DNA from: a virus
UHGV virus genome: UHGV-0214148
Direction: 5' to 3' (one strand)
DNA: 64,000 bases
The notes under the pieces were generated by a model. That model had not been told where the DNA came from. It saw only the letters and a program-made list of their open reading frames with translations, and ran no database searches. Positions within the stretch are counted from its first letter, which is position 1, and each line of letters opens with the position of its first letter. This document shows positions 3,802 through 61,449 of this stretch, piece after piece. A program made the translations under genes and the position numbers.

Positions 3802-5922
3802 TTAAATAACTACCCAGCTTTTGCCATCGGAACCAATCTGCATTAGCGTAATACTTTCATTGGTCTCAATGGGTTTGGCAAGACCTTCCGTCCCACTCTT
3901 TGGAGTGATGAGAACGTTTGAGTTTTCCGGTTTAACGATGATCTTACCAGCCTTATTTGCCACGATCTGTATATTTCTACCCACACTATATTCTAGATCA
4001 GGAATAGTAAGTTGGCCGCCACGGTTGGTGGCTGGGAAATACACATAAGACGACACATCTTCCTCAGATAACACTATACCACCAGAATCACGATTGACCG
4101 AGATCTCAAACTTAGAAATATCGATATCGTAGGCAGTAACTTTCGTAATATCTGTCAGAACCAATTCGTTCAAATCGGTATTAGCTGGACTGTTCGCCAG
4201 ATCAAACGGAGTGCCATTCTTGCCGTCAAGCACAGGTGTGACTTTGATTTTATTGTCACCCGGATAAATGATTTCAAGCGTATGCCAGTTATTATCGTAT
4301 GCACCAAAAGTTCCTAATTGCGCATTCTGCTTTTTATGATGCATCAGATAAAGATTCGTAGCGTCGGTCTGTAAGAAAAAAGACATTAGGTACGGGTTCG
4401 TCTTAGCCACACCAGCGTCAGCAAGTGTAGTACCAGAAGGTAGGTCGGACGCGGAAATACGCCAATAAAGTCCTAATCCGAAACGATCTGCTGCTAAATC
4501 ACCTTTTAGTCTAAAAGTAACGGTCAGACGTCCACCGTAACGTATCATGTCCGCAGCAGTCGCCATTGACTTAGTTACATTCCAAGGTTTCATCGTTACA
4601 GCCTTTCTTAATTCGACGAAATGCCCGTTTCCATCCTCAGTTTTTTGCACGGTTACGTTACAATCAACGATATTGTTCCAACCTTGCCCTTTCAGGGAAC
4701 CATCTCCACGACGACCGTTATAACCAACAGACTCTACTAATGGGGTATAGCTTCTTACCACATTCATATTGTCTTTGGAGCTCTTAGTGTCGTTCTTCGT
4801 CAGGAACATTGCACCAATCGCTGTTCTTGATAATATCTCGGCAGCTATTCTCTCTGAGATAATACCGCGTCGTGCCCAAGAACTGAAATGACTATTCCTT
4901 TCTGCAGACGTCCAGTTATCAGAACTACGGGAGGCAGCACCGTAATAGGCAGCACCAGTGATATTAGGATCGTCAGTGGGATCATTAGTCGGAACATGTT
5001 GGCCATTATCGTCGTACATGAATGGAACAAAAAAGATATTTTTTTGTTCGTTGTTACGATAATTACCGTATATGGTTTCATATTGAGCAGGATATTTTTC
5101 CTTCCAATAATAGGTAGTGTCCCCACAGATCCATGGTACTTCGGCGGTGGCGTACTCGGGCATCTGAGAGAGATGGTCAGAGAGATCAGTTCGGAAACGC
5201 TCTACCATTGCGTTAAATAACGCTGGTTGTTGTGCGTATTGTACTTTAGTCAGATCATACTCTCCCTGCATCCACACTACAGCCAAGAGTTTATTTTTAG
5301 GATTAACTTCCAGGGCTTTTTTGGTCCGGCTAACTAAATCTTTATAAAGCGGTTTGTCCACCCCCCATACCGATGACGCCGCAGAGGCTCCTGTGGCTTC
5401 ATCGAAGGTACCTTCTGCACCACCCGTGAAAGCAGAACCGCCGCGTGCGCAGGGTACTAGTAAGATACCGGCGTTCTTAGGAATATACGGGAGAAGACGC
5501 TTCGCGATATGAAGACCTTGACCCACACATCCGTATTCACCTTTGTCTAAATTGGCATTGGGATGCGAGTATTTGGACATATCTTGCACGTCGTGCAGAC
5601 AGTGATCCGCTGGAATGACGTCGTTATATTTACAATCAGCCCCATTAGGCGTTACCTTCGCACGGCGCGCCATCTGTTTAATTCGCGGATCGGGAGCGTC
5701 CAACGTCGCCGGTAGAGGCAACCCTTCACCATAACTCATCGCATTAGATTGCCCGGCTATAGGAATCACGAAGTAATACTCCGGCTCCGTCGTGCCCTGA
5801 AGTTTTGCAATATCAATTTTATATTCTTTTTCTTCCTTAGAAAGAAGAACTAACGCACCTTTGAGATCGCCAGAGAAATTGTCGAGTTCATGGATACGTT
5901 TCTTTCCAATTGGCTGACTCAT
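3802..5922 (-). CDS. tailspike / tail fibre protein with carbohydrate esterase (SGNH/SASA-like, GQSN motif) domain
   Basis: N-terminal about 35 aa is similar to the N-terminus of the 1479-aa fibre (shared anchor domain). Motif IPIAGQSNAMSYGEG resembles the catalytic GQSNM block of sialate-O-acetylesterase-type SGNH hydrolases found in esterase tailspikes. Confidence 0.6.
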   Translation of the reverse strand: MSQPIGKKRIHELDNFSGDLKGALVLLSKEEKEYKIDIAKLQGTTEPEYYFVIPIAGQSNAMSYGEGLPLPATLDAPDPRIKQMARRAKVTPNGADCKYNDVIPADHCLHDVQDMSKYSHPNANLDKGEYGCVGQGLHIAKRLLPYIPKNAGILLVPCARGGSAFTGGAEGTFDEATGASAASSVWGVDKPLYKDLVSRTKKALEVNPKNKLLAVVWMQGEYDLTKVQYAQQPALFNAMVERFRTDLSDHLSQMPEYATAEVPWICGDTTYYWKEKYPAQYETIYGNYRNNEQKNIFFVPFMYDDNGQHVPTNDPTDDPNITGAAYYGAASRSSDNWTSAERNSHFSSWARRGIISERIAAEILSRTAIGAMFLTKNDTKSSKDNMNVVRSYTPLVESVGYNGRRGDGSLKGQGWNNIVDCNVTVQKTEDGNGHFVELRKAVTMKPWNVTKSMATAADMIRYGGRLTVTFRLKGDLAADRFGLGLYWRISASDLPSGTTLADAGVAKTNPYLMSFFLQTDATNLYLMHHKKQNAQLGTFGAYDNNWHTLEIIYPGDNKIKVTPVLDGKNGTPFDLANSPANTDLNELVLTDITKVTAYDIDISKFEISVNRDSGGIVLSEEDVSSYVYFPATNRGGQLTIPDLEYSVGRNIQIVANKAGKIIVKPENSNVLITPKSGTEGLAKPIETNESITLMQIGSDGKSWVVI

Positions 5923-7884: not shown

Positions 7885-10800
7885 TTAATTCCCCTTGAGT
7901 TCTTTAAGCTCTTGGCGAAGAGTTTTCATGCCTTCTACTAACAACGCAATAACACCATTGTAATTTAGACGTAAACGTTTTTCGCCTGAAATGGCATCAT
8001 CATCCTCAGACACAAGCTCAGGTAACGCTTCTAGAGCGTCCTGAGCAATTAGACCTACAGAAGTCTGCCAGCCGTCGTCAGGATGCTGAATTTCGTACAA
8101 ATAACCGGTTAGTAACTCTAACCGATCCAAAGCCTTATCCAGCTTCACCAGATTACGTTTGTTACGACGGTCAGAACGAATCTGTACGTCGTTAAACGAA
8201 CCGTTACCGTTGCCAGTAACGTTATGTCCAAAGTTTACTTGGCCGTTAGAATTATTAAAAGACAACGGGCGTAATCCGTTCCAGGAACCCGCTGCGGCTT
8301 GTCCGGCGTCGGTTACTAAGAAATAGGTATTGGCACCGTCGTTACGTAAAATAAAACCGTAGGTACCGTAAGCGATTCGAAAATCAGGGTATTTAGTGGC
8401 CAATTTACCATTAACGGTTAAATCACCGCCTACAGTACCGCCCCCTGACGGTAACGCGCCCACTTCCGCAGCAGTTGGCTTGTTTCTCGTATTGTAAGCA
8501 CGACGCCAGCCTGGTGAGTATCCATCGCCGTTAAATACGTAGATAAACTCCGCATTAGTGAGTGCTCCGCCGACGCTCGTCGTTGTGGCGGTCGTTATAC
8601 GGATCGTGTAGTTGTTTGTGCTGTTGCCGTTACTAATGACTTCTATAACGGCCCCAGCTAACGGAATGACACCACAACCCGTCTCGCTGTGAGGTATGGA
8701 CGCACTGGCGGCATAAGCCCACGCACAGCGAGCAACCCACGATCTTGTGGTAAATGCGCCGTTATTTTTCAATAACGTCACTAGCTGTGCTGTAGTTATT
8801 GCACCGCCATTAGCGCCAGTTTCTAACCAACCACTAGGTGATGCCGGACAACCTATTTCGGCTGGCCCTAACGATATATTTCTAGTGCCATCAAACGCAA
8901 TACCATTGATGGTTCTTGCGGTTTGCAACTTTGTTGCCGTGGCTGCGTTTCCGGTGGTCGACTGATTCCCTGTTTGGTTTACTCCAGGTAAGTTGATGTC
9001 TTTAGTACCATCAAAAGCTACGCCACCTATATTTCGCGCAGTCTGGAGCTTAGTCGCAGTCGCAGCATTCCCCGTCGTCGATTGGTTACCGGTTTGGTTC
9101 ACACCGGGCAGACTAATGTCTTGCGAACCATCAAAGTTAATACCACCGATCTTACGTGGCGTTTGTAACTTAGTAGCGGTCGCTGCATTACCTGTCGTAT
9201 TCTGGTTACCTTGCTGGTTAACCCCCGGTAAATTGATATCCCCAGTACCGTCAAAGGTAACGCCCCCGATTCTGCGAGCAGTTTTCAGTTTCGTCGCGGT
9301 AGCAGCGTTACCAGTAGTATCTTGATTACCGGTGGTATTTACACCAGGAATACTATCACGGGCAGTATAAACTTGTGCCCAATCTGACCACGGCGCATCC
9401 GCTGTATCGCGTCGACTACGAATATAAACGGGTGCGTGCGCACCACTCGTGCCCGACCAACCGATTAACAGTTCACCTTCACCTAGCGCAGTAGAACCGC
9501 CCAAATGCAGCAAGTTACCATAAGCGGTCGGATAACCGTTATTGTAAACTTCGTACATCTGAATACCGGGTGTACCTTTGTTTGAACCGGTTAGTGCAGT
9601 AACCCGACCACGACCTACCAGGGTGTTGATATTGATGTCAGCAGAACCATCGAATCTCACACCGTTAATATTTCTGGCAGTTTGAAGTTTAGTGGCTGTC
9701 CCGGCATTACCCGTGGTGTTTTGATTACCCTGTTGGTTAACACCTGGGAGGTTAATATCAGCACTACCGTCGAAAGCGACTCCACCAATTCTACGTGCCG
9801 TCTTTAATTTCGTTGCGGTTGAAGCATTGCCTGTTAACTCGCCTGCTAACCCTTTTGCAAAGGTCTGTTTTTCTGCCCAGGTGTGTGCTGCATTCAATAC
9901 AGGCATCTGTCGTGGTGTAATCGTACGACTACCTTTCTCACCAGCGATACGTACTGCAAAGAATCGATAGTTGGCAGTAGACACCGTACTACGCCAAACC
10001 AACATACTCCGGCCTGATGTAGCGCCATCTGATGGACCAACCAGAATGCTAACTAAGTTACCGTCAATAACACCCCAATCCATTCCCGTAGGAATGTTTT
10101 TCATGGTGTTAAGCGGCGTACAGATTAACTCACCCGGTTTAAAGTCATAGGTTTGCCAGTCTAAAGGATCAACATTCGCACGTTCACCGCCGATACCTAA
10201 TACCAGCGGAAGCGAATACGATGTGAAAACCTCACGCCAATCGCTCCAAGCGTTACCCGTACGGATACGTTGGAATTTACGACCTTTAGTTTCTGTACCC
10301 GTACCGTATGTAGTATAATTCTGTTCGACCCCTGTACCGTCTAAGCGTAAGGTAACTTCACAAACGCCTAATATGGTTTCACCAGAAGAACCGGTAAGTG
10401 GACCGTTAGTTGCTTCACCAGTGACACTGAAACGTCCCGGTTTAACGAGATCGTTAAAATTGGCTTTAAAGAAAGCACCGTCAGTCTGATAACCAACCTG
10501 AATCCAATCTTCCCATTGCGGGTTTGATGAATCCCACGTTGCGGTCAAACCACGAACATACATCGTACCACGACGTGTGGTGTATCGCTGCAACCGTCCG
10601 AAAAGACCACCTTCCATTACTTCTAGTACGCCTTGCGCACCGCCACCTTCTTCAGGGTAATGTCTGCTAAAAACAGCCAGCGAACTGCTTGAGTTTCGCC
10701 AGTTACCCATATGCTCAGCGCCACCCAAACTGTTCAAGTCTATAGCGGTAGATAATGGACGTACACCAGTAGTTACCATTCTCCACGGCGACCAGGGTCC

Positions 10801-12324
10801 ATTGGCACCATTCCACTCGCCACTCAGCATACGGTTGTACACGTTACCATTACGACAGGTAAAACGCTGTGCACCACTGTAATTACCGGCTTTATACACT
10901 TCCAGATAACCGACTGCACCGTCTTCTGGGAAATGTTTTGCCATCGACGCATTGGTTGACGTCGACTTAGCCCACGTTCCTGTGTAATTGGCATCAGGAG
11001 CAAATGTGTTAATATCAGCATCTACAGGCATTTCGCCACGGAAACGTAGATAGGTGTCAGGAGACAGACCGATATTGCGAGCAAACGTTTCTTTATCTGG
11101 GATATCAGCGCCGTTAGAGTTTTTCTGTAACGCGCCATTCGCTTTATCTACAGTGGCTTTTAATCCCAAGAAATTGATGATATCCGCAGTTGACCCTTTC
11201 GCTAACAAGGATCTGGCCGTTTCTGTAAAATCCGTTAATCCGACTTTATTACTGCCAGTGAAATACATGAGTTTATTTGCCGCTGTGGTGACTGCGGCAA
11301 TGGCGGTGAGCAACGGACTGAGAGGTTGTTTCTGCGCAAGTTCCCCAGTAATCGTTGTTGCGAAGTTAGGGTCATTACCTAACGCCTCAGCTAATTCCGC
11401 TAAGGTATTTAACGTCTCGGGTGAAGAACCAACCAGTTCCGCAATCGCGTCACGCACCCAGGCCGTTGTGGAGATGCTCGTGTCGTTCGAGTCCTTCGGG
11501 GGTGTTGGGGATGACGGTTTACCCGTAAAATTCGGCGAATGTTTATTGGCTTTTAACTGTAATTCGTCATTCAGCTGTTTAACCGTGGACGGTGTGGCGG
11601 CCTCAGTCACGGATTCGCTAGTCAGTGTATCGTTAAGTTTAACGATACCTTTACCGGTCGTACTAGCGTCGATTAAGCCCTGCGCAGCGATTTTCTCCGC
11701 ACGTAAGGCAGCTGACTCCGAGCGTGTTGCTGCGCCTTCTGAACTTTCTTTATCTTTCGCGACCTGTGCAGCAATCTTCTCCACTGCGCCCTTACTGGCC
11801 TCAACTGAAGCCGCAGTATTCTCGACACCGGTAGCCGTCTGTTGGACTTGTCCGGCCTGTTGCGTAACCGTTTCTGCTTTCTTAGTTACATCAGCCGCTG
11901 CAGCCGTCACCGATTGTTCGCTTGTAGCGACAGCTTGAGCTTTCTCATTTACCGACTGTAATACAGTATCTACGGCAGTTTTCGCGGCTAAAACTTCAGC
12001 GTGTTTTTTGTTAACCTCAGCAGTTTTAGTGGCAACGGTTCCCGCTTGCTCGCTAACGGTGGAAGCTAACGTGTCAGTTTGTTGCTTCGCGGTTTCTGCT
12101 AAGTCTTTTGCTTGTGTGGCTTCTGTTGCAGACTGTTGTGATTTGGCCGCAGCCGTTTGTGCGTCAGCAACCGCGTTTCTGACGGTGTCAATATCCGCAA
12201 CAATCTCGCGGACAGGTAACTGATAATCCCTTTCGTCTTTCGAAAAAAGTAAAACGCCTTCACCGATATCCCCGGTGTATGGACGTAAATCGTGTAAACG
12301 AATTTTCTTTACCGCTTTAGCCAT
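7885..12324 (-). CDS. long tail fibre protein (1479 aa) with tandem fibre repeats and C-terminal intramolecular chaperone (peptidase S74-like) domain
   Basis: About 6 tandem repeats of the type TATKLQTAR-IGGV-FDG--DI-LPGVNQ-GNQ-TTGNAA; C-terminal ...SDRRNKRNLVKLDKALDRLELLTGYLYE... resembles the auto-cleaving chaperone domain of T5 pb1 and endosialidases; N-terminal coiled-coil and anchor region. Confidence 0.8.
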   Translation of the reverse strand: MAKAVKKIRLHDLRPYTGDIGEGVLLFSKDERDYQLPVREIVADIDTVRNAVADAQTAAAKSQQSATEATQAKDLAETAKQQTDTLASTVSEQAGTVATKTAEVNKKHAEVLAAKTAVDTVLQSVNEKAQAVATSEQSVTAAAADVTKKAETVTQQAGQVQQTATGVENTAASVEASKGAVEKIAAQVAKDKESSEGAATRSESAALRAEKIAAQGLIDASTTGKGIVKLNDTLTSESVTEAATPSTVKQLNDELQLKANKHSPNFTGKPSSPTPPKDSNDTSISTTAWVRDAIAELVGSSPETLNTLAELAEALGNDPNFATTITGELAQKQPLSPLLTAIAAVTTAANKLMYFTGSNKVGLTDFTETARSLLAKGSTADIINFLGLKATVDKANGALQKNSNGADIPDKETFARNIGLSPDTYLRFRGEMPVDADINTFAPDANYTGTWAKSTSTNASMAKHFPEDGAVGYLEVYKAGNYSGAQRFTCRNGNVYNRMLSGEWNGANGPWSPWRMVTTGVRPLSTAIDLNSLGGAEHMGNWRNSSSSLAVFSRHYPEEGGGAQGVLEVMEGGLFGRLQRYTTRRGTMYVRGLTATWDSSNPQWEDWIQVGYQTDGAFFKANFNDLVKPGRFSVTGEATNGPLTGSSGETILGVCEVTLRLDGTGVEQNYTTYGTGTETKGRKFQRIRTGNAWSDWREVFTSYSLPLVLGIGGERANVDPLDWQTYDFKPGELICTPLNTMKNIPTGMDWGVIDGNLVSILVGPSDGATSGRSMLVWRSTVSTANYRFFAVRIAGEKGSRTITPRQMPVLNAAHTWAEKQTFAKGLAGELTGNASTATKLKTARRIGGVAFDGSADINLPGVNQQGNQNTTGNAGTATKLQTARNINGVRFDGSADININTLVGRGRVTALTGSNKGTPGIQMYEVYNNGYPTAYGNLLHLGGSTALGEGELLIGWSGTSGAHAPVYIRSRRDTADAPWSDWAQVYTARDSIPGVNTTGNQDTTGNAATATKLKTARRIGGVTFDGTGDINLPGVNQQGNQNTTGNAATATKLQTPRKIGGINFDGSQDISLPGVNQTGNQSTTGNAATATKLQTARNIGGVAFDGTKDINLPGVNQTGNQSTTGNAATATKLQTARTINGIAFDGTRNISLGPAEIGCPASPSGWLETGANGGAITTAQLVTLLKNNGAFTTRSWVARCAWAYAASASIPHSETGCGVIPLAGAVIEVISNGNSTNNYTIRITTATTTSVGGALTNAEFIYVFNGDGYSPGWRRAYNTRNKPTAAEVGALPSGGGTVGGDLTVNGKLATKYPDFRIAYGTYGFILRNDGANTYFLVTDAGQAAAGSWNGLRPLSFNNSNGQVNFGHNVTGNGNGSFNDVQIRSDRRNKRNLVKLDKALDRLELLTGYLYEIQHPDDGWQTSVGLIAQDALEALPELVSEDDDAISGEKRLRLNYNGVIALLVEGMKTLRQELKELKGN
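8780..9850 (-). repeat. in-frame tandem coding repeats (~35 aa units) within the long tail fibre gene
   Basis: Repeated peptide motif visible in translation; also generates spurious antisense ORFs 8747..8965 and 8993..9325. Confidence 0.7.
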
Positions 12325-18611: not shown

Positions 18612-18652
18612 CCGTAAAAATAAATACTCCCTCTCTCCAAACGGAGAGAGGG
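18612..18652 (-). terminator. intrinsic terminator (CCCTCTCTCC-AAAC-GGAGAGAGGG)
   Basis: Same stem sequence as 17565..17606. Confidence 0.7.
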
Positions 18653-18657
18653 TAAGT

Positions 18658-19164
18658 TTACAGTACGTTTTCTTCGCGATCGTCTACTAAAATCGAAGTA
18701 ATCACATAACGCGCTAAGCGACTGCGTGCTTCTTCCGTTTCTTCTTCAGAAGGTAACTGTTCGCCCGCAGGTGCACACAACGTTAGCCCAGATTCACGAA
18801 GCTGCTCGGTATAGTCTTCCACAGCGCTGTCGAACGTACCACGAATACCTGCTACCGCATCCATAATTTCGTCGTTCGGAATAATGGATTCTTTTAGCAC
18901 GGCGTGAGCATCCGTAGGCTCCACCATTTGCAGGTTCTGTTCTACCAGCAACGCCTGTTTCGCTAAGCTGTCGGTGATAAAGCAAGATAGAATCTTTTCG
19001 AAATCGTCTAACGAGAATTCGGAGTCTTCAGATGCCCCGGTAATCAATTGCCCGTAGCGATTAAAGAATTCTTTACAACGCGTTTCGTAGTCAGCTTCTA
19101 AGTCGCGAACACCGAGATCAAAATCGTGCTGCTCAAGCTGATTAAAATCCAGAGTCTCTTTCAT
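18658..19164 (-). CDS. hypothetical highly acidic protein (168 aa)
   Basis: Strong excess of D/E over K/R; isolated between two terminators. Confidence 0.75.
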   Translation of the reverse strand: MKETLDFNQLEQHDFDLGVRDLEADYETRCKEFFNRYGQLITGASEDSEFSLDDFEKILSCFITDSLAKQALLVEQNLQMVEPTDAHAVLKESIIPNDEIMDAVAGIRGTFDSAVEDYTEQLRESGLTLCAPAGEQLPSEEETEEARSRLARYVITSILVDDREENVL

Positions 19165-19202: not shown

Positions 19203-19430
19203 TTAGAGTGCCAACGTTAACCCGGTATGGGTTTCTACTGAACCAACACCGTCACGCGCTTTTGCTTTGGCGATGAGTTTGTCAATTACACGTTGATGAC
19301 TGCGAGTAATATCTTTACCTGGATAACCGATAATCAGCACGTTCTCAGCATTAATAACCGCCGAGAACTCGTTATCACCTGCAACATAAGCAATCTTTTT
19401 GTCTTTGGTTACAATACGTTTGATTTCCAT
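19203..19430 (-). CDS. hypothetical protein (75 aa)
   Basis: ORF track. Confidence 0.6.
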   Translation of the reverse strand: MEIKRIVTKDKKIAYVAGDNEFSAVINAENVLIIGYPGKDITRSHQRVIDKLIAKAKARDGVGSVETHTGLTLAL

Positions 19431-19439
19431 TCAATGTCC

Positions 19440-20213
19440 TTAAAAGATAAAATGACCAGTTAATGCTTCTGCTTCAACACCAGGCATCGATGGAGGTGCT
19501 GAATATGGAAAAGTAAGACGCACGGTTGCGCCCTTTAAATACGCAATACGGTAGTACGTGGTCAAGAGCGCATTCCCGTAAGTACAATCGTTATAGAAGA
19601 AACCTTCGGTGGCAAACGTCTTTTCGTTGATTTTCGAATAGACTAAGATACCTTCAACTTTACCATCTTTACGGCAGCACAAACCTTCTGCTGCACCAAT
19701 CGCTAACAATTCCAGGCAGCGCGTATCCAAATTGACATTAACCACCTTAGTGATCGTAATCGTTTCTTCTAACGTTAGAGATTCAATATCATCTACATCA
19801 GGCAAATCGGTGCGAACTTCAGGTTTTTCAGTAAACGTCAGCTCATAATCGATGAACGACGGCTGCATACGCAAGAACGCCATTAACTGATCGCGACGTT
19901 TTAGGTCATTGGCAGGGTATGTGACATCAAACACCTCTACATTTAACAAACGTTTGAGTTGTGCGAAATTAATTTTCTTCTTCGCAAACACAACGATTGC
20001 CGACATGTAGAAAATCTTACCATCGGCGCGACCGGAGAAGACACATTGCAGCTGATTCGTGTTCGAAAGAATGATAAAGGTCGGATCTTCAGATTCGCGA
20101 ATGATGTCTTTTTCTATCAACCCTTTTCGTAGACGGGTTAGCGAAACTATTCTACCGCCCACACCAATTGCTAAATGGTCATTACGATAATCGTCAATAT
20201 CCACTATACGCAT
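19440..20213 (-). CDS. hypothetical protein (257 aa)
   Basis: ORF track; start/stop overlap with Dam gene. Confidence 0.75.
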   Translation of the reverse strand: MRIVDIDDYRNDHLAIGVGGRIVSLTRLRKGLIEKDIIRESEDPTFIILSNTNQLQCVFSGRADGKIFYMSAIVVFAKKKINFAQLKRLLNVEVFDVTYPANDLKRRDQLMAFLRMQPSFIDYELTFTEKPEVRTDLPDVDDIESLTLEETITITKVVNVNLDTRCLELLAIGAAEGLCCRKDGKVEGILVYSKINEKTFATEGFFYNDCTYGNALLTTYYRIAYLKGATVRLTFPYSAPPSMPGVEAEALTGHFIF

Positions 20214-21028
20214 TAGAGCACTCCCAGTAATTCAGTCACTGTTTTCCGAGCGGCACCAGACGCACCCATATAGCGACCGACCTCAATACTGCGCCACTCA
20301 AAACCGTAATAAATTTCTCGGGTGAGTAGGGTGTCTGCATTTGACAGCACGACGCTGTTGCCACGTCCCACCTGCTGCTGTAGTAACTTGGCTAATTCAC
20401 GATGATCCGTTTGTGAGAATTCTTTACGGTGGTATTGCGCGTGTTTCGCGGTATCCGATAACGGAATATAAGGAGGATCAGCATAAATCACGGCATCTTC
20501 AGGTGTCCGTGCTAATACAGAACGAAAGTCCTCACAAACAATTTCTAGATACTCAACTTCTGCGCAACGTTTAGCCCAATCCCGAATTTCTTCTAATGGA
20601 TAATAAACGCCATTCGGGTAACGTCCAAACGGAACATTGAACCCACCACTACTGTTATAGCGACACATCCCGTTATAACCGTGACGCATTAAGTATAAAA
20701 ACATTGCAGCACGTTCAACTTCGGTCATCGTTTTACCGCTATTAAACAGTTCACGACGTTCCATATACTTTACAGTGGTATTGCCGTCTAAGAACAACGG
20801 TTGCGATGCAGCGATCAGTTCTTCAGGCTGTTCACGCGCAACACAAAGTAAGCGTATCAAATCGGGGTTAGAATCCGATAGAATATACCGGCTGTAATTC
20901 GTATTTAGGAAAACAGACCCTGCGCCCACAAACGGTTCTACAAAGGTTGAACGTTTAGGTAAGACCTTTTGTAATTCACCCAAAACGCGTGTTTTCCCAC
21001 CCATCCATTTAATTATCGGTTTCCGCAT
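20213..21028 (-). CDS. dam: DNA adenine methyltransferase (Dam family, N6-A MTase)
   Basis: KWMGGK N-terminus, FVGAGSV SAM-binding motif, DPPY catalytic motif; collinear similarity to E. coli Dam. Confidence 0.88.
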   Translation of the reverse strand: MRKPIIKWMGGKTRVLGELQKVLPKRSTFVEPFVGAGSVFLNTNYSRYILSDSNPDLIRLLCVAREQPEELIAASQPLFLDGNTTVKYMERRELFNSGKTMTEVERAAMFLYLMRHGYNGMCRYNSSGGFNVPFGRYPNGVYYPLEEIRDWAKRCAEVEYLEIVCEDFRSVLARTPEDAVIYADPPYIPLSDTAKHAQYHRKEFSQTDHRELAKLLQQQVGRGNSVVLSNADTLLTREIYYGFEWRSIEVGRYMGASGAARKTVTELLGVL

Positions 21029-22007
21029 TATATCCGCCTTGTAACGATGACACTTCGTCGACTAACACCAATTTGACATGATTTTTCTGACGCTCCCAAC
21101 TGACGACGTTTTCGTCACGCACTAAAACAAATTCGTATTCGTAGGGGCGAAATTTAAATAATTCGACGGCCAGGTGCCTGAATGCAGGGTTGTTATTGAA
21201 ACACCCTATTTCTAATGGTGCCGCTGTTGTCGATGCAATTTGTAGAGCACGATACAATAAAGTCCGTCCGATACCACGACCCCGATGTGTCTCACTTACC
21301 GCAATGGCTTTTAATTCACACTCGTTAAGATTACGCAATTTAACTTGCACCGCGCCCACAATATCGTTGCCGTCCATCCAAACGTAGGTGTGGTGGTTGA
21401 CGTGGCGTACTAACTCCACCAACGTTTCGACTTGTGGCATGATTTGACGTGAGCGACTCACAGGGTCAGCGTTGATGTTTTCAACGACACTCGTACCCAA
21501 AAGCAACATAAGCTGTTCACGTTGTGCGGCAGTTAACTCTTTATAAAAATCGCCGGAAATGTTCTTCACGTTTGTTGGTAGAGCGATATCCAACAACGAG
21601 CGTGTACCTAAGCGATACGTAGTGTGGGTGTGTCTAAATCCTAAGTCATTAAGCTCAGCGATTTCTTCTACACCACTGGCGATTCGATTAAGGTACGTAA
21701 AACCGGTATAGTCGAGTACCAGTAGCAGGTTCAGTTTGTTCAAACAACCCGGTACAATTTCATGCATATACAAGCAGTGTAACGTTGGGTCGCCGTAAAT
21801 GTGTTTTGTGATGATAAACCCTTGGATTGTTTTTCCTTTTTGTAAAGAGAACGTATTCAGTTCACTATTGCACAACGCCTCACGAATCACAGCACCGTTA
21901 GGGCCCGATAAACATGCCTGAAGTTGAGGGTTGCGAATATCTCTACGTGCTAACCGACCTACTGTTAAATCCGTGGCGGTATGTTTTATAATCTTCATAA
22001 AAGCCAT
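21009..22007 (-). CDS. two-domain protein with C-terminal GNAT acetyltransferase fold
   Basis: C-terminal motif IAVSETHRGRGIGRTLLYRAL is a canonical acetyl-CoA binding motif A; 20-nt overlap with dam start. Confidence 0.7.
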   Translation of the reverse strand: MAFMKIIKHTATDLTVGRLARRDIRNPQLQACLSGPNGAVIREALCNSELNTFSLQKGKTIQGFIITKHIYGDPTLHCLYMHEIVPGCLNKLNLLLVLDYTGFTYLNRIASGVEEIAELNDLGFRHTHTTYRLGTRSLLDIALPTNVKNISGDFYKELTAAQREQLMLLLGTSVVENINADPVSRSRQIMPQVETLVELVRHVNHHTYVWMDGNDIVGAVQVKLRNLNECELKAIAVSETHRGRGIGRTLLYRALQIASTTAAPLEIGCFNNNPAFRHLAVELFKFRPYEYEFVLVRDENVVSWERQKNHVKLVLVDEVSSLQGGYNAETDN

Positions 22008-22049
22008 GTTAATTACTCCTTAAAAGGTCGTCTCAAAACAATACGCTAA

Positions 22050-22089
22050 AGTTGTAAAAACAAAAAAGAAAGGGGAACCGAAGTTCCCC
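22050..22089 (-). terminator. intrinsic terminator (GGGGAAC-CGAA-GTTCCCC)
   Basis: Hairpin + T-run on minus strand. Confidence 0.65.
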
Positions 22090-22101
22090 AATTATTAAAC
22101 A

Positions 22102-22773
22102 TCATGCAGAAGGGGCAGAGTTTGTAAAAGCAAGATTGGGTGTCAAGCCAGCTTTCCCTAATTTTTCATACAGGTAATTGAAAAATCTGAGATGGGCGTC
22201 GTAGTGGCCAGCCGCTACTCGCTGGCCGTAAACTTCTACCAAGTCAGGCGAAAACTTAATATGGCAGTTTTGTCTAGAGAACAAAGGTTGTTGCACCCCA
22301 CCCTTAATTAAGATGCGATACTTTTTACCGTCGTCTGTTACGGCGTGAAGAATATTTGTACTGAAATGGAAATAGATAGAAGGGTTAAAACACAACCAGG
22401 TGGCGGCATTGATTAGTAAGTCAGCTAACTTAACAGCGATTTTGTCAAGTTCAGGCCCTTCAAACTTATGCATTAACCGCAGAAGAATTTCAGTAATAAC
22501 CGTGCCTGTAAGTAATTTGTCTCTATTAAGACCAGGTGCAACCGCCAAAACATCACCATTATAAGTGCAGACAAGTGTGAATAAGTTGAAAGGCTGGTCT
22601 TGATAAAGTTCGAAAACCAGGTCAGTATACGGGCTAAAAGTTAAGAATTTCACCCCGAGTATTTCATTAACGCAGGGTAAAAGCTCAACTTTCACAGGCG
22701 GTTGAGCTTCGTTAACTTTAGTCTCGTTCTTTACAGCTTCTTCAATTACGGTTTTACCAATTTTCGGTGGCAT
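22102..22773 (-). CDS. hypothetical protein (223 aa)
   Basis: ORF track. Confidence 0.7.
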   Translation of the reverse strand: MPPKIGKTVIEEAVKNETKVNEAQPPVKVELLPCVNEILGVKFLTFSPYTDLVFELYQDQPFNLFTLVCTYNGDVLAVAPGLNRDKLLTGTVITEILLRLMHKFEGPELDKIAVKLADLLINAATWLCFNPSIYFHFSTNILHAVTDDGKKYRILIKGGVQQPLFSRQNCHIKFSPDLVEVYGQRVAAGHYDAHLRFFNYLYEKLGKAGLTPNLAFTNSAPSA

Positions 22774-22794
22774 GATAATACTCCTTCAGGTTGA

Positions 22795-23154
22795 TTAGTG
22801 TGTTGCGGCGTTAGTGATAAAACGCACATTCTTCGTGGTGCGTTTAATGGACGTGTTTGCAACGTAGTCCAACGCGGACTCTACGTGAACGGTTACTGAG
22901 CAACGACCCTTAACGGAATTAAAACTAATCTGGTATTTCAGACGAATCGCATCAGCAACTTTCATCATAATCGGCAAACTTAAACGTTCTGAGTGATCGT
23001 TCTTAATAGACGAGATAACGGGTTGTGAAACTTTCGCAAGCTGGGCAAGTTCACGCTGAGTAATGTCTTTTGTGGTCAAATGACGAATTACGTAAGACAA
23101 GTGAAGACCGAATTTACGCTTTGCCAGAATGATGGAATTGTGATTGTAAGCCAT
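22795..23154 (-). CDS. putative HTH DNA-binding regulator (119 aa)
   Basis: Segment ITQRELAQLAKVSQPVISSIKN resembles an XRE-type helix-turn-helix; follows a promoter-like motif copy. Confidence 0.5.
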   Translation of the reverse strand: MAYNHNSIILAKRKFGLHLSYVIRHLTTKDITQRELAQLAKVSQPVISSIKNDHSERLSLPIMMKVADAIRLKYQISFNSVKGRCSVTVHVESALDYVANTSIKRTTKNVRFITNAATH

Positions 23155-23203: not shown

Positions 23204-23238
23204 CTCTCACCTAGGTAATATATATCTGAGAAAAAATA
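23204..23238 (-). promoter_or_regulatory. conserved promoter-like motif copy 2
   Basis: Near-identical to copy 1; upstream of HTH gene. Confidence 0.5.
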
Positions 23239-25545: not shown

Positions 25546-26013
25546 TTAGATTTCCTTTATCATTTCCCTGCATTCAGTACGGAATCCCATTTTCTCATAC
25601 AAGGAGATAGCTTTAACGTTGTTGTCTAACACATCCAAACTCATCCAACCACAACCTTTGGACTTTCCATATTCACGGACTTTGTCCATAAGTGCACGAC
25701 CCACCCCTTGAGAACGCGCTTCGGGAATCACGTAGTAGTTCCCAATATAAACAAATGTGTCCTTCGAGCAAGAACCCATTGAAAAGGTCATAATTCCCAG
25801 AAGTTGTTCGTTGTCATCCACGGCACACGCACAGAGATAATCTTGGGGCCAGATCTCTTCTAAGTGTTCAATTGGGTTGAACGTGTCGCGTCCGGTTAAC
25901 TGACTAATACGCACTTTCTCTTCTGCGAACAACATGTTGTGCAGTTTGAGTACCTGGTCGCCGTATAACTTTCCGTATTTACTGTCGGGTTTGAGAATAA
26001 TAGTGATACGCAT
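25546..26013 (-). CDS. GNAT family N-acetyltransferase
   Basis: Motif A VIPEARSQGVGRALM and C-terminal NNVKAISLYEKMGF. Confidence 0.75.
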   Translation of the reverse strand: MRITIILKPDSKYGKLYGDQVLKLHNMLFAEEKVRISQLTGRDTFNPIEHLEEIWPQDYLCACAVDDNEQLLGIMTFSMGSCSKDTFVYIGNYYVIPEARSQGVGRALMDKVREYGKSKGCGWMSLDVLDNNVKAISLYEKMGFRTECREMIKEI

Positions 26014-43559: not shown

Positions 43560-45854
43560 TTACTTACCAGCAGCAGCTTTGCCTTCGCCAGCAACGTTAC
43601 CTGCTACACCACCTTCGGTTTGTTTCTGACCGTTCTGTTCAACAGAAACATTGTAAGCCAGTTTTTCTTCAACCAGTTTGGTGATGCCTTTAACCCAGAT
43701 CAGACCAGTGATCGGGCAGTGGCAGATGTGCGCGTTACGCGGCTGTACGGCCAGCTCTTTAGAGGTAGAACCGTTACGCTGAATGTTGATGTTGGTAACC
43801 ATGATCGGAGACCAGAAGTGGTTACCCCAGTTCAGCACGTTGTAGGAACCATCGTCCGCAGTCGGAACTTTCAGGAACCATTGCAGACGACGAGTCCAGG
43901 AACCGTCAGCTGCGTTGTAGATACGCCAGCGGTCATCGTTGGTGGTGATCACTTCGTATTCGTAGCGATCGCCCAGCAGACGTTGGTCGCCCTGTACCAG
44001 CAGCAGCATAGATGCAGTCGGTTCGTCAGTTGCAATAACAACTTTCGGCAGAATGTCCGGATCGGCAGTGTACAGACGCAGCGCAGGAATGAAGCGAGAT
44101 TCCTGGATAGCCTGAGTTACCTGATTACCGATACGCTGTACCAGGCCCTGACGAGCGTTGATCAGTGCATCTTTGGTATCCAGGGACTGTACAACTTCAT
44201 CAACGTTGTAGTCAGACTCTTTGAACCACGGAGCAACCCAGTGACGGCCCAGACCACGAATGGCCGGTTTGTCCCACGGAGTGATCATGCTTGCAGCAGC
44301 GTTACGTACCGCTTCGGTGTAAGACAGCGTCTGAGTGATAGCCAGCTGTTCGTTACGGATGTTAACTGCGGAAATCAGGTCGTCCAGACGTTCGGTATCG
44401 TCGTATTCAACGCCAACCGGAGACTTGGTCAGGATCGGAGAACCGTATTGCAGTTTGTAGTTTTCTTGTTCCCAGATTGGGTCAAGCAGCAGACCCTGGG
44501 TACGACGGTTTTCGTTGGTACGAGTACCATCGAAGCGCCAGCCCATCAGTTCAAGTTTCAGACCGTCCAGGATAACTTTGCCGGTACCAGATTTGGTATC
44601 AACTTTGTTACCGGTAGCGTCGTACAGACCTTCGATTTCCAGTTTGTGACCAGCGATGTCAACTTTACCACCGAACTGACCGGTAGTGAACAGAGACATG
44701 TTGATGGTGATCACATAACGCAGGGTGTAGGAGTTCTGTTCCAGTGATTTCAGTGCCGGAATAGCTTCGCCTTTCCAGTCGGTGGTTTTCGCATTCAGAG
44801 AGAACGCAGTACGACGGAATTGCAGTACCAGCTCACGGCCATCACCTTCAGCAGGACGCTGGAAGGTTGCGAACTGCATGTCACGAACGTGCAGTTTGAT
44901 GAATTTACCTGCTTTCGCTTCTTCGGTCGGTTTACGTACGGAAATCAGCAGGCTGCCCAGAGCACAACCCGGTGCGATTTCATCAGTTTCGTCGTAACCT
45001 TCCTGAACGATACCCGGATGCGCAGACAGCTGGAACAGGTTCAGAGTGTCTTTAGCAAAGCTCAGGTAGTTAGTCGGGTACGGAGGTACACGACCCAGGC
45101 GAACAGATTCGTTCGGTACCAGTTCTTCGCTTACGAAGTATTCAGCGTTTTCACCGGTTTCCATTACGTAAGGAACGATGTTGATCGCTTCGTCCTGAAG
45201 AACGGTGTGGTCAGTCAGCGCTTCGTGCAGGTTACGACGATGATCTTCAACAACGTCTTTGGTCAGTAACGCGTGCATGACACCACGAGAAACGGTGGTC
45301 ACTTTGGTACGTACGGTAATACCAACATCGTTGGTGTCAACGGTGATGGTCGGGAACAGAGTCTCAGCAAAACGAGACTGAGTTTCCAGAGCACGTACGT
45401 TCAGCGTCCAGGTCAGACCCAGGTTTTTGTCGTAATCTTTGTTGGTGTAGTATTCCTGAGCAACAACCATACGCTCTTTGCCCCAGTCGCCGTTACCAGC
45501 TTGGGAACCAGGAATCGCAACGTCCAGGTTAAAACGGCTATGGAATTCTGGCTTAGCGTATTCTTGCGCTACTTTTTCTTGCAGGTCCATACCGTGACCA
45601 GCAGCACCCAGAATCATTGCAGAAGCAACTTCCGCAGCGTGGGACATTTTCTTACCGCCAGCAAACGCGTTTGCGTAGTGCTGTGCAGCATCGTCACGCA
45701 GGGTACCAAAAACTTTCGTGTTGCTACGTACAGACTCACCAGCAACGATGGTGTTCCACATTTCGCCAGCACTGTTGTTACTAATGACGCTTTGTACCAG
45801 CGAGTTACCAGCTTGTACGAGTTTCTCCAGATTAGAGATTCGGGTATCTTTCAT
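43560..45854 (-). CDS. highly expressed major virion protein candidate (764 aa; possibly major capsid protein)
   Basis: E. coli-optimal codon usage (CTG, CGT, GGT, AAC, GAA) contrasting with neighbours; strong bidirectional terminator immediately downstream. Function inferred only from size and expression signature. Confidence 0.85.
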   Translation of the reverse strand: MKDTRISNLEKLVQAGNSLVQSVISNNSAGEMWNTIVAGESVRSNTKVFGTLRDDAAQHYANAFAGGKKMSHAAEVASAMILGAAGHGMDLQEKVAQEYAKPEFHSRFNLDVAIPGSQAGNGDWGKERMVVAQEYYTNKDYDKNLGLTWTLNVRALETQSRFAETLFPTITVDTNDVGITVRTKVTTVSRGVMHALLTKDVVEDHRRNLHEALTDHTVLQDEAINIVPYVMETGENAEYFVSEELVPNESVRLGRVPPYPTNYLSFAKDTLNLFQLSAHPGIVQEGYDETDEIAPGCALGSLLISVRKPTEEAKAGKFIKLHVRDMQFATFQRPAEGDGRELVLQFRRTAFSLNAKTTDWKGEAIPALKSLEQNSYTLRYVITINMSLFTTGQFGGKVDIAGHKLEIEGLYDATGNKVDTKSGTGKVILDGLKLELMGWRFDGTRTNENRRTQGLLLDPIWEQENYKLQYGSPILTKSPVGVEYDDTERLDDLISAVNIRNEQLAITQTLSYTEAVRNAAASMITPWDKPAIRGLGRHWVAPWFKESDYNVDEVVQSLDTKDALINARQGLVQRIGNQVTQAIQESRFIPALRLYTADPDILPKVVIATDEPTASMLLLVQGDQRLLGDRYEYEVITTNDDRWRIYNAADGSWTRRLQWFLKVPTADDGSYNVLNWGNHFWSPIMVTNINIQRNGSTSKELAVQPRNAHICHCPITGLIWVKGITKLVEEKLAYNVSVEQNGQKQTEGGVAGNVAGEGKAAAGK

Positions 45855-58700: not shown

Positions 58701-58714
58701 ATTATTTTTAATGC

Positions 58715-58760
58715 GAAAAAAAAAAGAAAGGGGAGAACCACCCCATTACAGGGTGGTTCT
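58715..58760 (-). terminator. intrinsic terminator after paralog A virion gene
   Basis: AGAACCACCC-CATTACA-GGGTGGTTCT + T10. Confidence 0.65.
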
Positions 58761-58779
58761 CTTACTAAACAATCAGGGA

Positions 58780-60069
58780 TTATTTAGATTTTTCGTAAGC
58801 AGCGATACCTGCGGAGATATAGCCGTTCAGACCGCCAGCCAGATGTTTCTGAGTAGAGGCAATAACTTTCTCGCCCAGAGACACTGCCTGGTTAATGCTG
58901 TTGATGTAACGACGTGCGGTACGTACAGATTCGGTCAGTTCCGGTTTTTCGTCGATCTTCACGCTGTCGATTTCTTTCAGCAGCTTCTCAATCTGCTGAC
59001 TGAATTTCTCGCGAGCCTGTTCGGTCTTACGATATTCCAGAACGTTCTTCTCAATCTGTTTACCCACTTCGTTGAAGAAGGCATTGGTCTTAGCCAGTTC
59101 GCTAACAGACGGAGTTTTAACGTTGGTTTCAGCACGGTTTTCAGCTTCCACGTAGCTGGAGCTAAAGCCGCCTTCTTCGTCATATTCCATCTTCAGCGCC
59201 ATGTTACCAAGTTTGAACTTGTTAACGTCTTCTTTGGCCAGAGCAGCGAAGTCTGCTTTCAGTTTATCAACTTTAGCGCCATCGCCTTTAACAACGTTAC
59301 CAACCAAATCCGTACCGTTGTTCAGGAAGCTCTGAACGTTACCACTGTAGTAGGTGGAAACGTGGTTCAGGATATTCTTCAGGCGCACCAGATCGTCACC
59401 AACGAATTTACCGTCGACGGACAGAGACTTGATGAAGCCACCAGAGATTTCATCTTTCTTCTGTTTGCCCAGCTTACGAATAGCTTCGTCGTATTTCTTA
59501 GAACGGGCCTGGATGGATTTACCCTGGTTGGAGAATTTCAGCCAACGATCTTTGATCTTACGGCCTTGTTCTTTCAGCCATTCCCAAATACGTTTCAGGA
59601 AGGCTTTAATGTCTTCCCACAGGGATTCACGAGCAACCTGACGACGGTTACGAGAACCGTAGGATTCGTGAGCAACAGAAGAACGGTGTTCGAAGTTCCA
59701 ACGAGAACGGATAGATTCCTGAGCAACGTCCAGCGCAGTCGCAGCGTCGTCCGGCATATCTTCTTCGGCGTCCATCGGTTCTTCACCGTCTTCGCCAGCA
59801 CCTTCACCGTCAGCAGCAGCCTGAGCTTCATCCAGAACTTCCAGCTGAGCATCAGTTTCGTCACCGTCTTCTGCCAGCAGTTCAGCGTCAGCGTCCAGGG
59901 CTTCGATCGGTTTGGTATCATGCTCGATATCGGCCAGAGTACCTTCAACAGATTCTGCTGGCAGTTCGATGCCGTCTGGAACTACAGTGGCAGTAGCTTC
60001 CATCGATTCACGAGCGGCGCGAGTTTTTGCGAAATTTGCCATTTTAAGCTTTTCCTCTAAGGGGAACAC
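58780..60069 (-). CDS. highly expressed virion-associated protein, paralog A (429 aa)
   Basis: Host-optimal codon usage; first 16 aa (MANFAKTRAARESMEA) identical to paralog B and C-terminus conserved (GLNGY..AGI.AY.KSK). Confidence 0.85.
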   Translation of the reverse strand: MFPLEEKLKMANFAKTRAARESMEATATVVPDGIELPAESVEGTLADIEHDTKPIEALDADAELLAEDGDETDAQLEVLDEAQAAADGEGAGEDGEEPMDAEEDMPDDAATALDVAQESIRSRWNFEHRSSVAHESYGSRNRRQVARESLWEDIKAFLKRIWEWLKEQGRKIKDRWLKFSNQGKSIQARSKKYDEAIRKLGKQKKDEISGGFIKSLSVDGKFVGDDLVRLKNILNHVSTYYSGNVQSFLNNGTDLVGNVVKGDGAKVDKLKADFAALAKEDVNKFKLGNMALKMEYDEEGGFSSSYVEAENRAETNVKTPSVSELAKTNAFFNEVGKQIEKNVLEYRKTEQAREKFSQQIEKLLKEIDSVKIDEKPELTESVRTARRYINSINQAVSLGEKVIASTQKHLAGGLNGYISAGIAAYEKSK

Positions 60070-60118: not shown

Positions 60119-61390
60119 TTATTTAGACTTTTTGTACGCGCCGATACCAGCACCCAGGTAACCGTTCAGACCGCTAATGACGGTGTTAGCTACGTAGCTA
60201 ACGGCACGGTTCAGGGTCTGGTAGTTCTTCACAGACTGATCAGCAGCTTGACGTGCATTACGCAGTCCTTCCCACTTACTCTCGTCTTTTTCGTTGTTCA
60301 GCGCGTTGGACGCTTTTTCAGCAGCCTGTTGCAGTTTCACGATTTCAGAATCGTAAGCACGGAAATCTTTCAGTACGGCTTCGAAGCCTTTACCGATTGC
60401 TTCCAGAGCAGATGCTGCGCCAGCCATTTCAGAAACAGACGGAGTAGCCACTTCTTTATCGTCAGAAGCGTCACCGGTGCTCATGAAAGCAATTGCGGTG
60501 AACTTGTGGCCGCCAGCCAGTTCTTTAGTACCAGCCTGAACGTAAGCGTTGCCCGGCAGTGCCAGCAGTTTAGACGCATCACCATTTTCAAAGTTCGGCA
60601 GAGAATGCAGTTTAGACGCTGCTTTACCAAACAGTTCTACCGGCTGATCGCCACGCATTGCTTTGAATGCGTCATCGTCACCTTTGGTAACAGCGGTCAC
60701 AGCTTCACCGGCTTGTTTTTCCAGTGCACCGATAGCACCTTTCGCTTTACCTGCGGTAACTTCTTTAGCGATGGCAATAGAGCCAGCAGCATCGAATTTA
60801 CCTTCGATGGACAGTTTGGTGATAAAGCCACCAGAAATGTTGTCTTTATCTTGTTTGCCCAGCTTGCGGATCATTTCCTGATATTTCTTCGCACGTTTCT
60901 GCGCGGTCTTACCGACGTTGAAATATTTCAGTTTCAGGTCTTTGATCTTCGCGATCACTTCTTTACAGAACTGAATGAAGCGCTCGTAAAGACCCTTCAG
61001 GGTTTCTTTCCAACCTTCCTGGGCAGCAGCAGTCATGCCACGACCACGGCGATAGGATTCGCGAGCCAGTTTAGTGCGCTCCAGGTTCCAACGACGTGCG
61101 ATGGATTCCTGTGCCACTTCGTGCAGGGCAACCGCTTCTTCCGGCATTTCTTCACCGTTAGCAACGGCTTCTTCCGCCTGTTCGATAGCGTCTTCAGTAC
61201 GCTCGGTATCGGCAGCCAGGGTTTCACCGTCGGTTTCCAGCTGATCGAGCTGACCGTCGATAGATGCTACGTCCGCAAGTTGGACGTCCAGGTTCTCTTC
61301 TGCCGGTTCAACGTTGCTGATACCGTCGATTACTTCATCGGCCGCTTCCATCGATTCACGAGCGGCGCGAGTTTTTGCGAAATTTGCCAT
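60119..61390 (-). CDS. highly expressed virion-associated protein, paralog B (423 aa)
   Basis: As paralog A. Confidence 0.85.
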   Translation of the reverse strand: MANFAKTRAARESMEAADEVIDGISNVEPAEENLDVQLADVASIDGQLDQLETDGETLAADTERTEDAIEQAEEAVANGEEMPEEAVALHEVAQESIARRWNLERTKLARESYRRGRGMTAAAQEGWKETLKGLYERFIQFCKEVIAKIKDLKLKYFNVGKTAQKRAKKYQEMIRKLGKQDKDNISGGFITKLSIEGKFDAAGSIAIAKEVTAGKAKGAIGALEKQAGEAVTAVTKGDDDAFKAMRGDQPVELFGKAASKLHSLPNFENGDASKLLALPGNAYVQAGTKELAGGHKFTAIAFMSTGDASDDKEVATPSVSEMAGAASALEAIGKGFEAVLKDFRAYDSEIVKLQQAAEKASNALNNEKDESKWEGLRNARQAADQSVKNYQTLNRAVSYVANTVISGLNGYLGAGIGAYKKSK

Positions 61391-61449
61391 TTCGTTTATT
61401 TCCTTTGGTTATATAACCCAATTACACGCCCCTAGAATGAGGGGCCCCC

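Follow-up and report, generated by a model that had tools for sequence, protein, structure and literature searches.

In a 64,000-nucleotide stretch of the UHGV virus genome UHGV-0214148 (hereafter the window, meaning that whole stretch), a gene for a GNAT-fold acetyltransferase and a gene for a DNA adenine methylase (Dam) overlap on the minus strand, and the reading favoured here, with a probability of roughly 0.7, is that they encode co-expressed but functionally independent enzymes. The initial annotation had compared the pair with the Mom system of phage Mu, which is Dam-dependent and acylates adenine, and had proposed a DNA-modification or anti-restriction module, an analogy that fails for the reasons given below. 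The pair as such was known before: the GNAT and Dam genes of this clade had been annotated by automatic pipelines, and in public SPN3US-like genomes they stand as "GNAT acetyltransferase" and "DNA adenine methylase", the copy in the window being divergent. What is new is the assignment of the GNAT to a tiny, jumbo-phage-only family with two predicted domains, the recognition of a hidden GNAT paralogue downstream of Dam, and a comparison of genomes that speaks against an obligate coupling of GNAT and Dam. No functional literature was found on SPN3US gp104/gp105, on tandem GNATs in phages or on Dam in jumbo phages. Were the acceptor identified, a step of host takeover or counter-defence might come to light in nucleus-forming jumbo phages; as isolate assemblies of Salmonella, Shigella and E. 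coli commonly contain this phage clade, it would be of practical importance.

The GNAT gene (21009..22007, minus strand) encodes a protein of 332 aa, the orthologue of SPN3US_0104 / YP_009153398. Its C-terminal half had been described from the start as a GNAT acetyl-CoA-binding fold, and rightly so: PF00583 (Acetyltransf_1) matches residues 198-280 with an E-value of 1.6e-12 (48.1 bits against a gathering cut-off of 20.7), and the pyrophosphate-binding loop of motif A, RGRGIG (aa 242-247; 21267..21284, minus strand), is intact. At this loop the window, SPN3US and the most distant family member all agree with the consensus Q/R-x-x-G-x-G/A, and an acyl-CoA donor is therefore indicated. The AlphaFold2 model (pLDDT 79, pTM 0.71) shows, by the order of its secondary structure elements, two domains of GNAT topology (aa 14-133 and 150-310), and the fold that characterizes the superfamily, b1-a1-a2-b2-b3-b4-a3-b5-a4-b6, is present. 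The initial annotation had recognised no motif in the N-terminal ~200 aa, which holds at the sequence level, where a profile of the N half found no matches in the PDB, but not at the level of the fold: according to the model, this half is a second, degenerate GNAT-like domain (aa ~14-135; 21603..21968, minus strand) that lacks the CoA motif, while the catalytic-type domain occupies aa ~150-310 (21078..21560, minus strand), the whole being a tandem GNAT. The most conserved motif of the family, LLD[YH]TGF (aa 97-103; LDYTGF at 21699..21716, minus strand), lies in the N-domain, and both halves are under purifying selection to a similar degree, the ratio of non-synonymous to synonymous substitution rates (dN/dS) being ~0.10 in each when compared with an 87%-identical relative.

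The predicted structure superposes on MshD, WecD, VipF and 3tt2 over 192-226 residues. In common with MshD (1ozp), VipF of Legionella (6wqb), MAB_4324 of M. abscessus (7q3a), Eis and WecD (2fs5), the phage protein would carry two GNAT domains in one chain and keeps an intact CoA-binding motif in the C-terminal one, although identity to these proteins is just 8-14%, with no family-level sequence match. In fact, the MshD family model (TIGR03448) gives 20.3 bits against a cut-off of 163, and no NCBIfam or PADLOC family claims the protein. The family itself is limited to jumbo phages: at E<1e-30, a set of 1.84 billion proteins yielded 7 representatives. By its architecture, the protein may thus be described as a putative acyl-CoA-dependent N-acyltransferase of the MshD/VipF/Eis type. 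A GNAT toxin paired with a ribbon-helix-helix antitoxin was also considered and rejected: TacT and AtaT are single-domain proteins of ~170 aa accompanied by a small antitoxin, whereas here the protein has 332 aa and two predicted domains, its neighbours are Dam and a 223-aa open reading frame (ORF), and neither PADLOC nor NCBIfam returned a match.

The second enzyme is encoded at 20213..21028 (minus strand) and has 271 aa, with the N-terminus MRKPIIKWMGGK. Its identity as an adenine methylase was likewise correctly given in the initial annotation: PF02086 (D12 methyltransferase) covers aa 8-249 (E 1.3e-56, 192.6 bits against a cut-off of 22) and the Dam subfamily model TIGR00571 scores 252.3 bits, well over its cut-off of 114.85, while NF008152, the equivalog model of E. 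coli Dam (EcoDam), gives 255 bits against a cut-off of 441. The match to EcoDam 2g1p has an E-value of 7e-64 at ~44% identity. The phage enzyme shares with EcoDam and TIGR00571 the S-adenosylmethionine-binding FxGxG motif, here FVGAGS (aa 33-38; 20915..20932, minus strand), the catalytic DPPY (aa 184-187; 20468..20479, minus strand) and the GATC contacts, and a GYNGMCRYN motif lies at 20654..20680 (minus strand) of its coding sequence. Residues K7, Y118, N119, M121, R123, P133 and Y137 align with K9, Y119, N120, L122, R124, P134 and Y138 of EcoDam, whose roles in contacting GATC have been described (PMC4417163), the conservative L122M being the single change among these contacts. The protein is therefore classed, from its sequence, as an E. 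coli-type orphan N6-adenine methyltransferase for which GATC is the predicted target. It differs from EcoDam in being phage-borne and in sitting between GNAT-fold genes. The best PADLOC model is also that of an orphan methyltransferase, and no restriction endonuclease partner was found near it, the neighbours being GNAT-fold proteins and small ORFs devoid of a nuclease domain; a type II restriction-modification system, which would call for a cognate nuclease at the locus, was accordingly discarded.

GATC itself occurs 164 times in the window against 268 expected (observed/expected ratio 0.61), and is thus the second most depleted palindromic tetramer after CTAG (0.40), despite the phage having a GATC methylase of its own. 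The interval from 20813 to 22995, which includes the whole GNAT gene and its leader, is free of GATC, and no clustering of the site beyond chance was detected in the window.

GNAT, Dam and the rest of the unit all lie on the minus strand, which the initial annotation had left unsaid. The 20-nt overlap is exact as first annotated (21009..21028), the 3' end of the GNAT gene (…NAETDN, followed by the stop) running over the 5' end of Dam (MRKPII…), and the absence of a terminator between the two genes, which had also been claimed, was borne out, since terminator-like hairpins flank the unit instead. At its 5' boundary an intrinsic-terminator-like hairpin with a T run, GGGGAAC-TTCG-GTTCCCC (22072..22089, minus strand), ends the upstream gene; straight after it comes a TTTTTAC(A/G) element (22054..22060, minus strand), a candidate phage promoter ~47 nt 5' of the GNAT ATG, and then a Shine-Dalgarno sequence, AAGGAG (22016..22021, minus strand), read from the sequence 8 nt 5' of that ATG. 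Downstream of Dam come ORF257 (19440..20213, minus strand), whose start codon shares 1 nt with the stop codon of Dam (TAATG) and which is the orthologue of SPN3US_0106, ORF75 (19203..19430, minus strand), kept in close relatives, and ORF168 (phrog_8221; 18658..19164, minus strand), after which a terminator-like hairpin of 10 bp (7 GC) at 18629..18652 (minus strand) closes the unit. With such hairpins on both flanks, the transcription unit consists of five genes: GNAT, Dam, ORF257, ORF75 and ORF168.

The 5' boundary is a conserved one. A hairpin with a T run lies 5' of the GNAT gene in all relatives, and 5' of Dam in Erwinia phage Asesino, and (C)TTTTTAC precedes the operon in 11 of the 12 aligned loci (SPN3US, pEa29, Wellington, Machina, ChrisDB, Caitlin and Asesino among them), the sole exception being that of a distant phage, L008. 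The cassette of terminator plus TTTTTAC, which was seen in loci L001-L005, L009, L011, L012, L014 and L015, is also found at 18620 and 30562 in the window, and is probably a phage RNA-polymerase promoter of unassigned class, both its promoter function and its temporal class being inferred. The three sites in the window (22054..22089, 18614..18652 and 30556..~30600, all on the minus strand) have the same build, namely a GC-rich hairpin, a T run and (C)TTTTTAC(A/G), some ~45-55 nt before a gene start.

An SD-like AAGGCGGA (21033..21040, minus strand) lies within the GNAT coding sequence, 4 nt 5' of the Dam ATG. Co-transcription and the start/stop overlap make translational coupling of Dam to GNAT plausible, as the initial annotation had proposed, and ribosomes could in effect pass from one gene to the other. 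Nevertheless, the length of the overlap varies: the distance from GNAT stop to Dam start is -20 nt in the window, -8 nt in the three closest relatives, +1 in Machina, +6 to +9 in six others (6 nt in SPN3US) and +79 in Wellington. The longer overlap of the window, compared with the 8 nt of its closest relatives, is due to a 4-codon C-terminal extension, ETDN. No significant structure was found in the RNA around the Dam start (z = 0.2), and coupling through an RNA structure hiding that start was ruled out on this ground.

Taken together, the favoured reading, that of co-expressed and independent enzymes, would work as follows. The operon would be transcribed from the conserved element just after the upstream terminator; ribosomes ending at the GNAT stop would sit within the first codons of Dam, beside the SD-like sequence, and might re-initiate there, so that the overlap would tie the expression of both genes together while their substrates differ. 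The GNAT would use acyl-CoA and modify an amine acceptor in the cleft between its two domains, as in MshD, VipF and Eis, the N-domain probably helping to bind this acceptor, and Dam would methylate GATC. We infer an acceptor other than DNA, either a protein of the host or the phage or a small amine; acetylation of a protein, which the initial annotation had put forward as its alternative, would be the most likely of these activities.

The functional independence of GNAT from Dam is suggested by comparison of the locus across relatives. Both genes are real, with orthologues in many genomes and under purifying selection, and GNAT precedes Dam in each of the 11 relatives examined that carry the GNAT (SPN3US, pEa_SNUABM_29, Wellington, Machina, ChrisDB, Caitlin, pEa_SNUABM_8, three metagenomic contigs and the E. 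coli 98232 episome). This conservation extends well beyond the pair: the whole block of thymidylate kinase, helix-turn-helix (HTH) protein, one or two small ORFs, GNAT, Dam and gp106 is collinear across these phages, and adjacency of GNAT and Dam is therefore, by itself, of little information. The SPN3US pair (SPN3US_0104/0105) and its orthologues in Seoulvirus, Machinavirus and Wellingtonvirus share block and gene order with the window, and the SPN3US GNAT likewise has 332 aa and a terminator plus TTTTTAC element upstream; the differences are that the 20-nt overlap of the window corresponds to a 6-nt gap in SPN3US, and that the second downstream paralogue of SPN3US, gp107, is missing from the window. 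More informative are the losses. The erskineviruses Asesino, phiEaH2 and Stratton have Dam at 70-72% identity, and none of the three appears in the complete list of 59 phage records with the GNAT. In Asesino, the terminator and TTTTTAC element run directly into Dam, and no remnant of the GNAT gene was found. Conversely, no ORF257-like gene is present in the 11-kb locus of the very distant phage P0030 (L008; one of the three metagenomic contigs, GNAT match E 7e-8), which has both GNAT and Dam and for which no cultured-phage relatives were found. Each flanking gene can therefore go singly while Dam stays. Moreover, a close relative (L009) carries a GNAT allele of 44% identity next to a Dam of 81% and an ORF257 of 88%. 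Dam is thus the constant of the locus, and the GNAT-fold genes around it are lost or swapped independently.

ORF257 deserves separate mention: it is a paralogue of the tandem GNAT, in degenerate form, and had not been recognised as such before. Its best matches are the tandem GNATs named above (MshD, VipF, MAB_4324, Eis, WecD) and motif A is clearly lost, which makes it probably non-catalytic, yet it is strongly constrained (dN/dS 0.05); these phages therefore do keep tandem-GNAT folds that are not catalytic. A Foldseek search of BFVD with the tandem-GNAT model returned "uncharacterized" proteins of Erwinia jumbo phages at E 1e-6 to 1e-10, namely A0A1B2IE03 (Kwan, 215 aa), A0A1B2IDM8 (Huxley, 214 aa), J7KKF1 (phiEaH2, 256 aa) and A0A1B2IE56 (Kwan, 276 aa). 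These model-based matches, whose accessions, including those of the 213-215-aa Erwinia-phage proteins, could not be mapped to gene positions, hint that the family of GNAT-fold paralogues may be larger than the two members described here.

Several observations weigh against the favoured reading. The order GNAT-Dam is kept in P0030 in spite of its distance, and in every lineage examined at least one tandem-GNAT or tandem-GNAT-like gene adjoins Dam, so the conserved adjacency may be more than inherited synteny. As regards the protein itself, comparison of the profiles of its N and C halves by hhalign was not significant (P 0.09), though the alignment was in register, and, as the N half had no PDB match either, the assignment of the N-domain comes from the predicted structure only. 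In addition, the clade of the window has Ala, and others have Phe, in place of the general-acid Tyr of motif B (LY in SPN3US), and the first Gly of motif A has become Arg in several Erwinia-phage branches, which means that catalysis by the GNAT is not guaranteed.

These substitutions are the starting point for the alternative that survives best, although we regard it as improbable: the tandem GNAT would be a non-catalytic binding or scaffold protein, like the GNAT-like domain of the phage-nucleus protein chimallin. The persistence of ORF257 under constraint without motif A agrees with this, as does the location of the most conserved family motif in the N-domain, which is not the one expected to bind CoA. 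Nevertheless, RGRGIG retains the consensus from the window to the most distant member, the Pfam GNAT models score above their gathering thresholds, and the Tyr of motif B is missing from many active GNATs, points which argue for a catalytic protein.

Less probable still is that GNAT, ORF257 or both serve Dam, acetylating or binding it and so tuning its activity, its specificity or its localisation, for example its import into the phage nucleus. Tandem-GNAT-fold paralogues do stand on both sides of Dam with start/stop overlaps at each, and each lineage examined retains at least one of them, the ORF257 type in Asesino and the GNAT in L008. This proposal, however, is drawn from sequence arrangement in a region which is collinear anyway, and E. 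coli-type Dam enzymes (2g1p) act as stand-alone monomers. Furthermore, divergence has been much quicker in GNAT and ORF257 than in Dam (identities to SPN3US of 30%, 24% and 67%, respectively), and the L009 locus combines a replaced GNAT allele with conserved Dam and ORF257 (81-88%); this fast divergence and the allele swap argue against a tight co-evolution of GNAT with Dam.

The least tenable of the alternatives is the one closest to the initial annotation, namely that the target acylated by the tandem GNAT is a DNA base or nucleotide precursor, and that GNAT and Dam jointly produce an anti-restriction modification; we consider it very doubtful, and a DNA-directed role for the GNAT is unlikely in general. 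In its favour stand the tight and widespread linkage of the GNAT with a DNA methylase, the mildly basic N-domain (isoelectric point, pI, 8.75) and the depletion of GATC in the window, which shows restriction-type pressure on this site. GNAT folds can, in addition, modify DNA, as Mom does, and jumbo phages are predicted to encode further DNA modifiers of GNAT type (PMC7824862).

The case against is nevertheless the stronger one, beginning with Mom itself. The phage protein has in common with Mu Mom the GNAT superfamily fold, its phage origin and a historical association with Dam. This association is, for Mom, regulatory: its Dam dependence is transcriptional, acting through methylated GATC sites 5' of the mom promoter, with no chemical partnership between the enzymes, and an adjoining Dam is therefore not a Mom-like feature. 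Regulation of that type, through GATC clusters or leader sites, was examined and set aside for the present operon, whose leader has no GATC, the densest clusters being those expected by chance. Mom, a DNA adenine N6-glycyl/carbamoylmethyl transferase, forms dimers of chains that each have one GNAT domain and, inserted into it, an essential HTH-like segment (Mu residues ~175-209), and it moves glycine from Gly-tRNA(Gly) onto adenine N6 in double-stranded DNA (PMC13219725); the same paper reports N6-acyl groups on adenine to be unstable. Its authors also pointed out, as a caveat to the present argument, that GNAT substrates are not predictable from the fold. The GNAT of the window, by contrast, has two canonical GNAT-topology domains in its model with no HTH-like insertion, a canonical CoA motif where Mom uses an aminoacyl-tRNA, and a neutral pI of 7.2 against 10.0. 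The Mom family model PF25680 did not match it at E<=0.01, while scoring Mu Mom at 2.4e-75, and BLASTP against Mom gave nothing significant; the two proteins have no alignable homology by which the essential Mom residues R111, S124 and R151 might be placed in the phage protein. Mom membership is thus ruled out by family model, sequence comparison and domain architecture alike, and the analogy drawn in the initial annotation had to be abandoned, all the more because Dam is kept in erskineviruses that have no GNAT.

Besides Mom, an amine acceptor on the DNA could be supplied by hypermodification enzymes, but none was found in the 20 large ORFs scanned, out of 33 not already examined near GNAT and Dam; these included tail fibre proteins, the major capsid protein, internal head proteins and a DnaB-like helicase. 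DNA-modification systems are, moreover, uncommon in Chimalliviridae according to a review. A broader version, in which the tandem GNAT and its paralogue or paralogues would form around Dam a jumbo-phage-specific module unrelated to Mom, either placing an acyl-derived group on DNA or nucleotides or re-programming Dam, is just as doubtful; were it true, the module would be a DNA-modification or anti-restriction system of a kind distinct from Mom.

As for the phage itself, genes for a major capsid protein of phiKZ type, for tail fibres, for internal head proteins resembling those of phiKZ and for a divergent DnaB-like ATPase are present in the window. Among cultured phages it comes closest to Erwinia phage Asesino (Erskinevirus), with which part of the structural region shares ~76% nucleotide identity, and to the SPN3US-like Salmonella phages. 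NZ_CP173450.1, deposited in RefSeq as a circular "plasmid" of 221,873 bp from E. coli strain 98232 (urine, Egypt; locus L015), has 81-84% nucleotide identity to the window and is in fact a jumbo phage genome of the same clade. An identical GNAT protein is present in 19 public contigs, the longest of 225.5 kb. Its 90%-identity cluster contains entries named "GNAT family N-acetyltransferase [Salmonella enterica]", and entries in the Dam cluster carry the names of Shigella flexneri, Salmonella and E. coli. From gene content, relatives and public deposits together, the window belongs to an SPN3US/Asesino-like, phiKZ-like jumbo phage of enteric bacteria, of ~225 kb and with Escherichia, Shigella and Salmonella as hosts. 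The deposits under bacterial names suggest a carrier state, pseudolysogeny or frequent co-isolation. The 90%-identity clusters of GNAT, Dam and ORF257 were found on contigs of ~220-228 kb, with Salmonella enterica, Shigella flexneri, S. sonnei and E. coli as the named deposits.

Among the neighbouring genes, the thymidylate kinase of the collinear block is an ordinary member of PF02223. The 223-aa ORF immediately upstream (22102..22773) was tried as a further GNAT paralogue, for which hhalign gave no support, although the 213-215-aa Erwinia-phage matches of the GNAT model are still a lead; it has 37-38% identity to its counterparts in relatives (L009, L014, L015) whose Dam and ORF257 are at 81-88%. 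Such mosaic divergence over 21009..22773, where in L009 the GNAT too falls to 44%, indicates that alleles have been replaced at the operon's 5' end. At 25546..26013 (minus strand), five genes 5' of the GNAT/Dam pair, the window has a second GNAT, a single-domain protein of 155 aa (phrog_3810), in the syntenic position of a small GNAT annotated in the closest relatives. In length it resembles the 154-aa candidate spermidine acetyltransferase of SPN3US, YP_009153389. The SPN3US candidate made no N-acetylspermidine on expression, while those of Erwinia phage Caitlin and phiEaH2 were active (PMC9992855).

Some further features of the window may be recorded. The sequence TATATTAC occurs three times (3744, 23222 and 50436, minus strand), always on the coding strand, in intergenic position and 5' of a gene, the copy at 23222 preceding an HTH gene; we take it to resemble the AT-rich early promoters of phiKZ-like phages, those used by the virion RNA polymerase. 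Early promoters of such phages have been described in general terms (PMC5312081). To judge by their domains, two proteins are likely to bind receptors or act as depolymerases: one of 706 aa (3802..5922, minus strand), which has a SASA sialate O-acetylesterase-type domain and DUF6645, and a tail fibre of 1479 aa (7885..12324, minus strand), in which the trimerisation domain of T4 gp34 is combined with an S74 intramolecular chaperone domain. Finally, ORFs of 375-449 aa run antisense to long minus-strand genes, the major capsid gene included, the pairs being 58711..60060 (plus) with 58780..60069 (minus), 60248..61435 (plus) with 60119..61390 (minus), and 43620..44747 (plus) with 43560..45854 (minus); these antisense ORFs are probably non-coding shadows of the sense genes.

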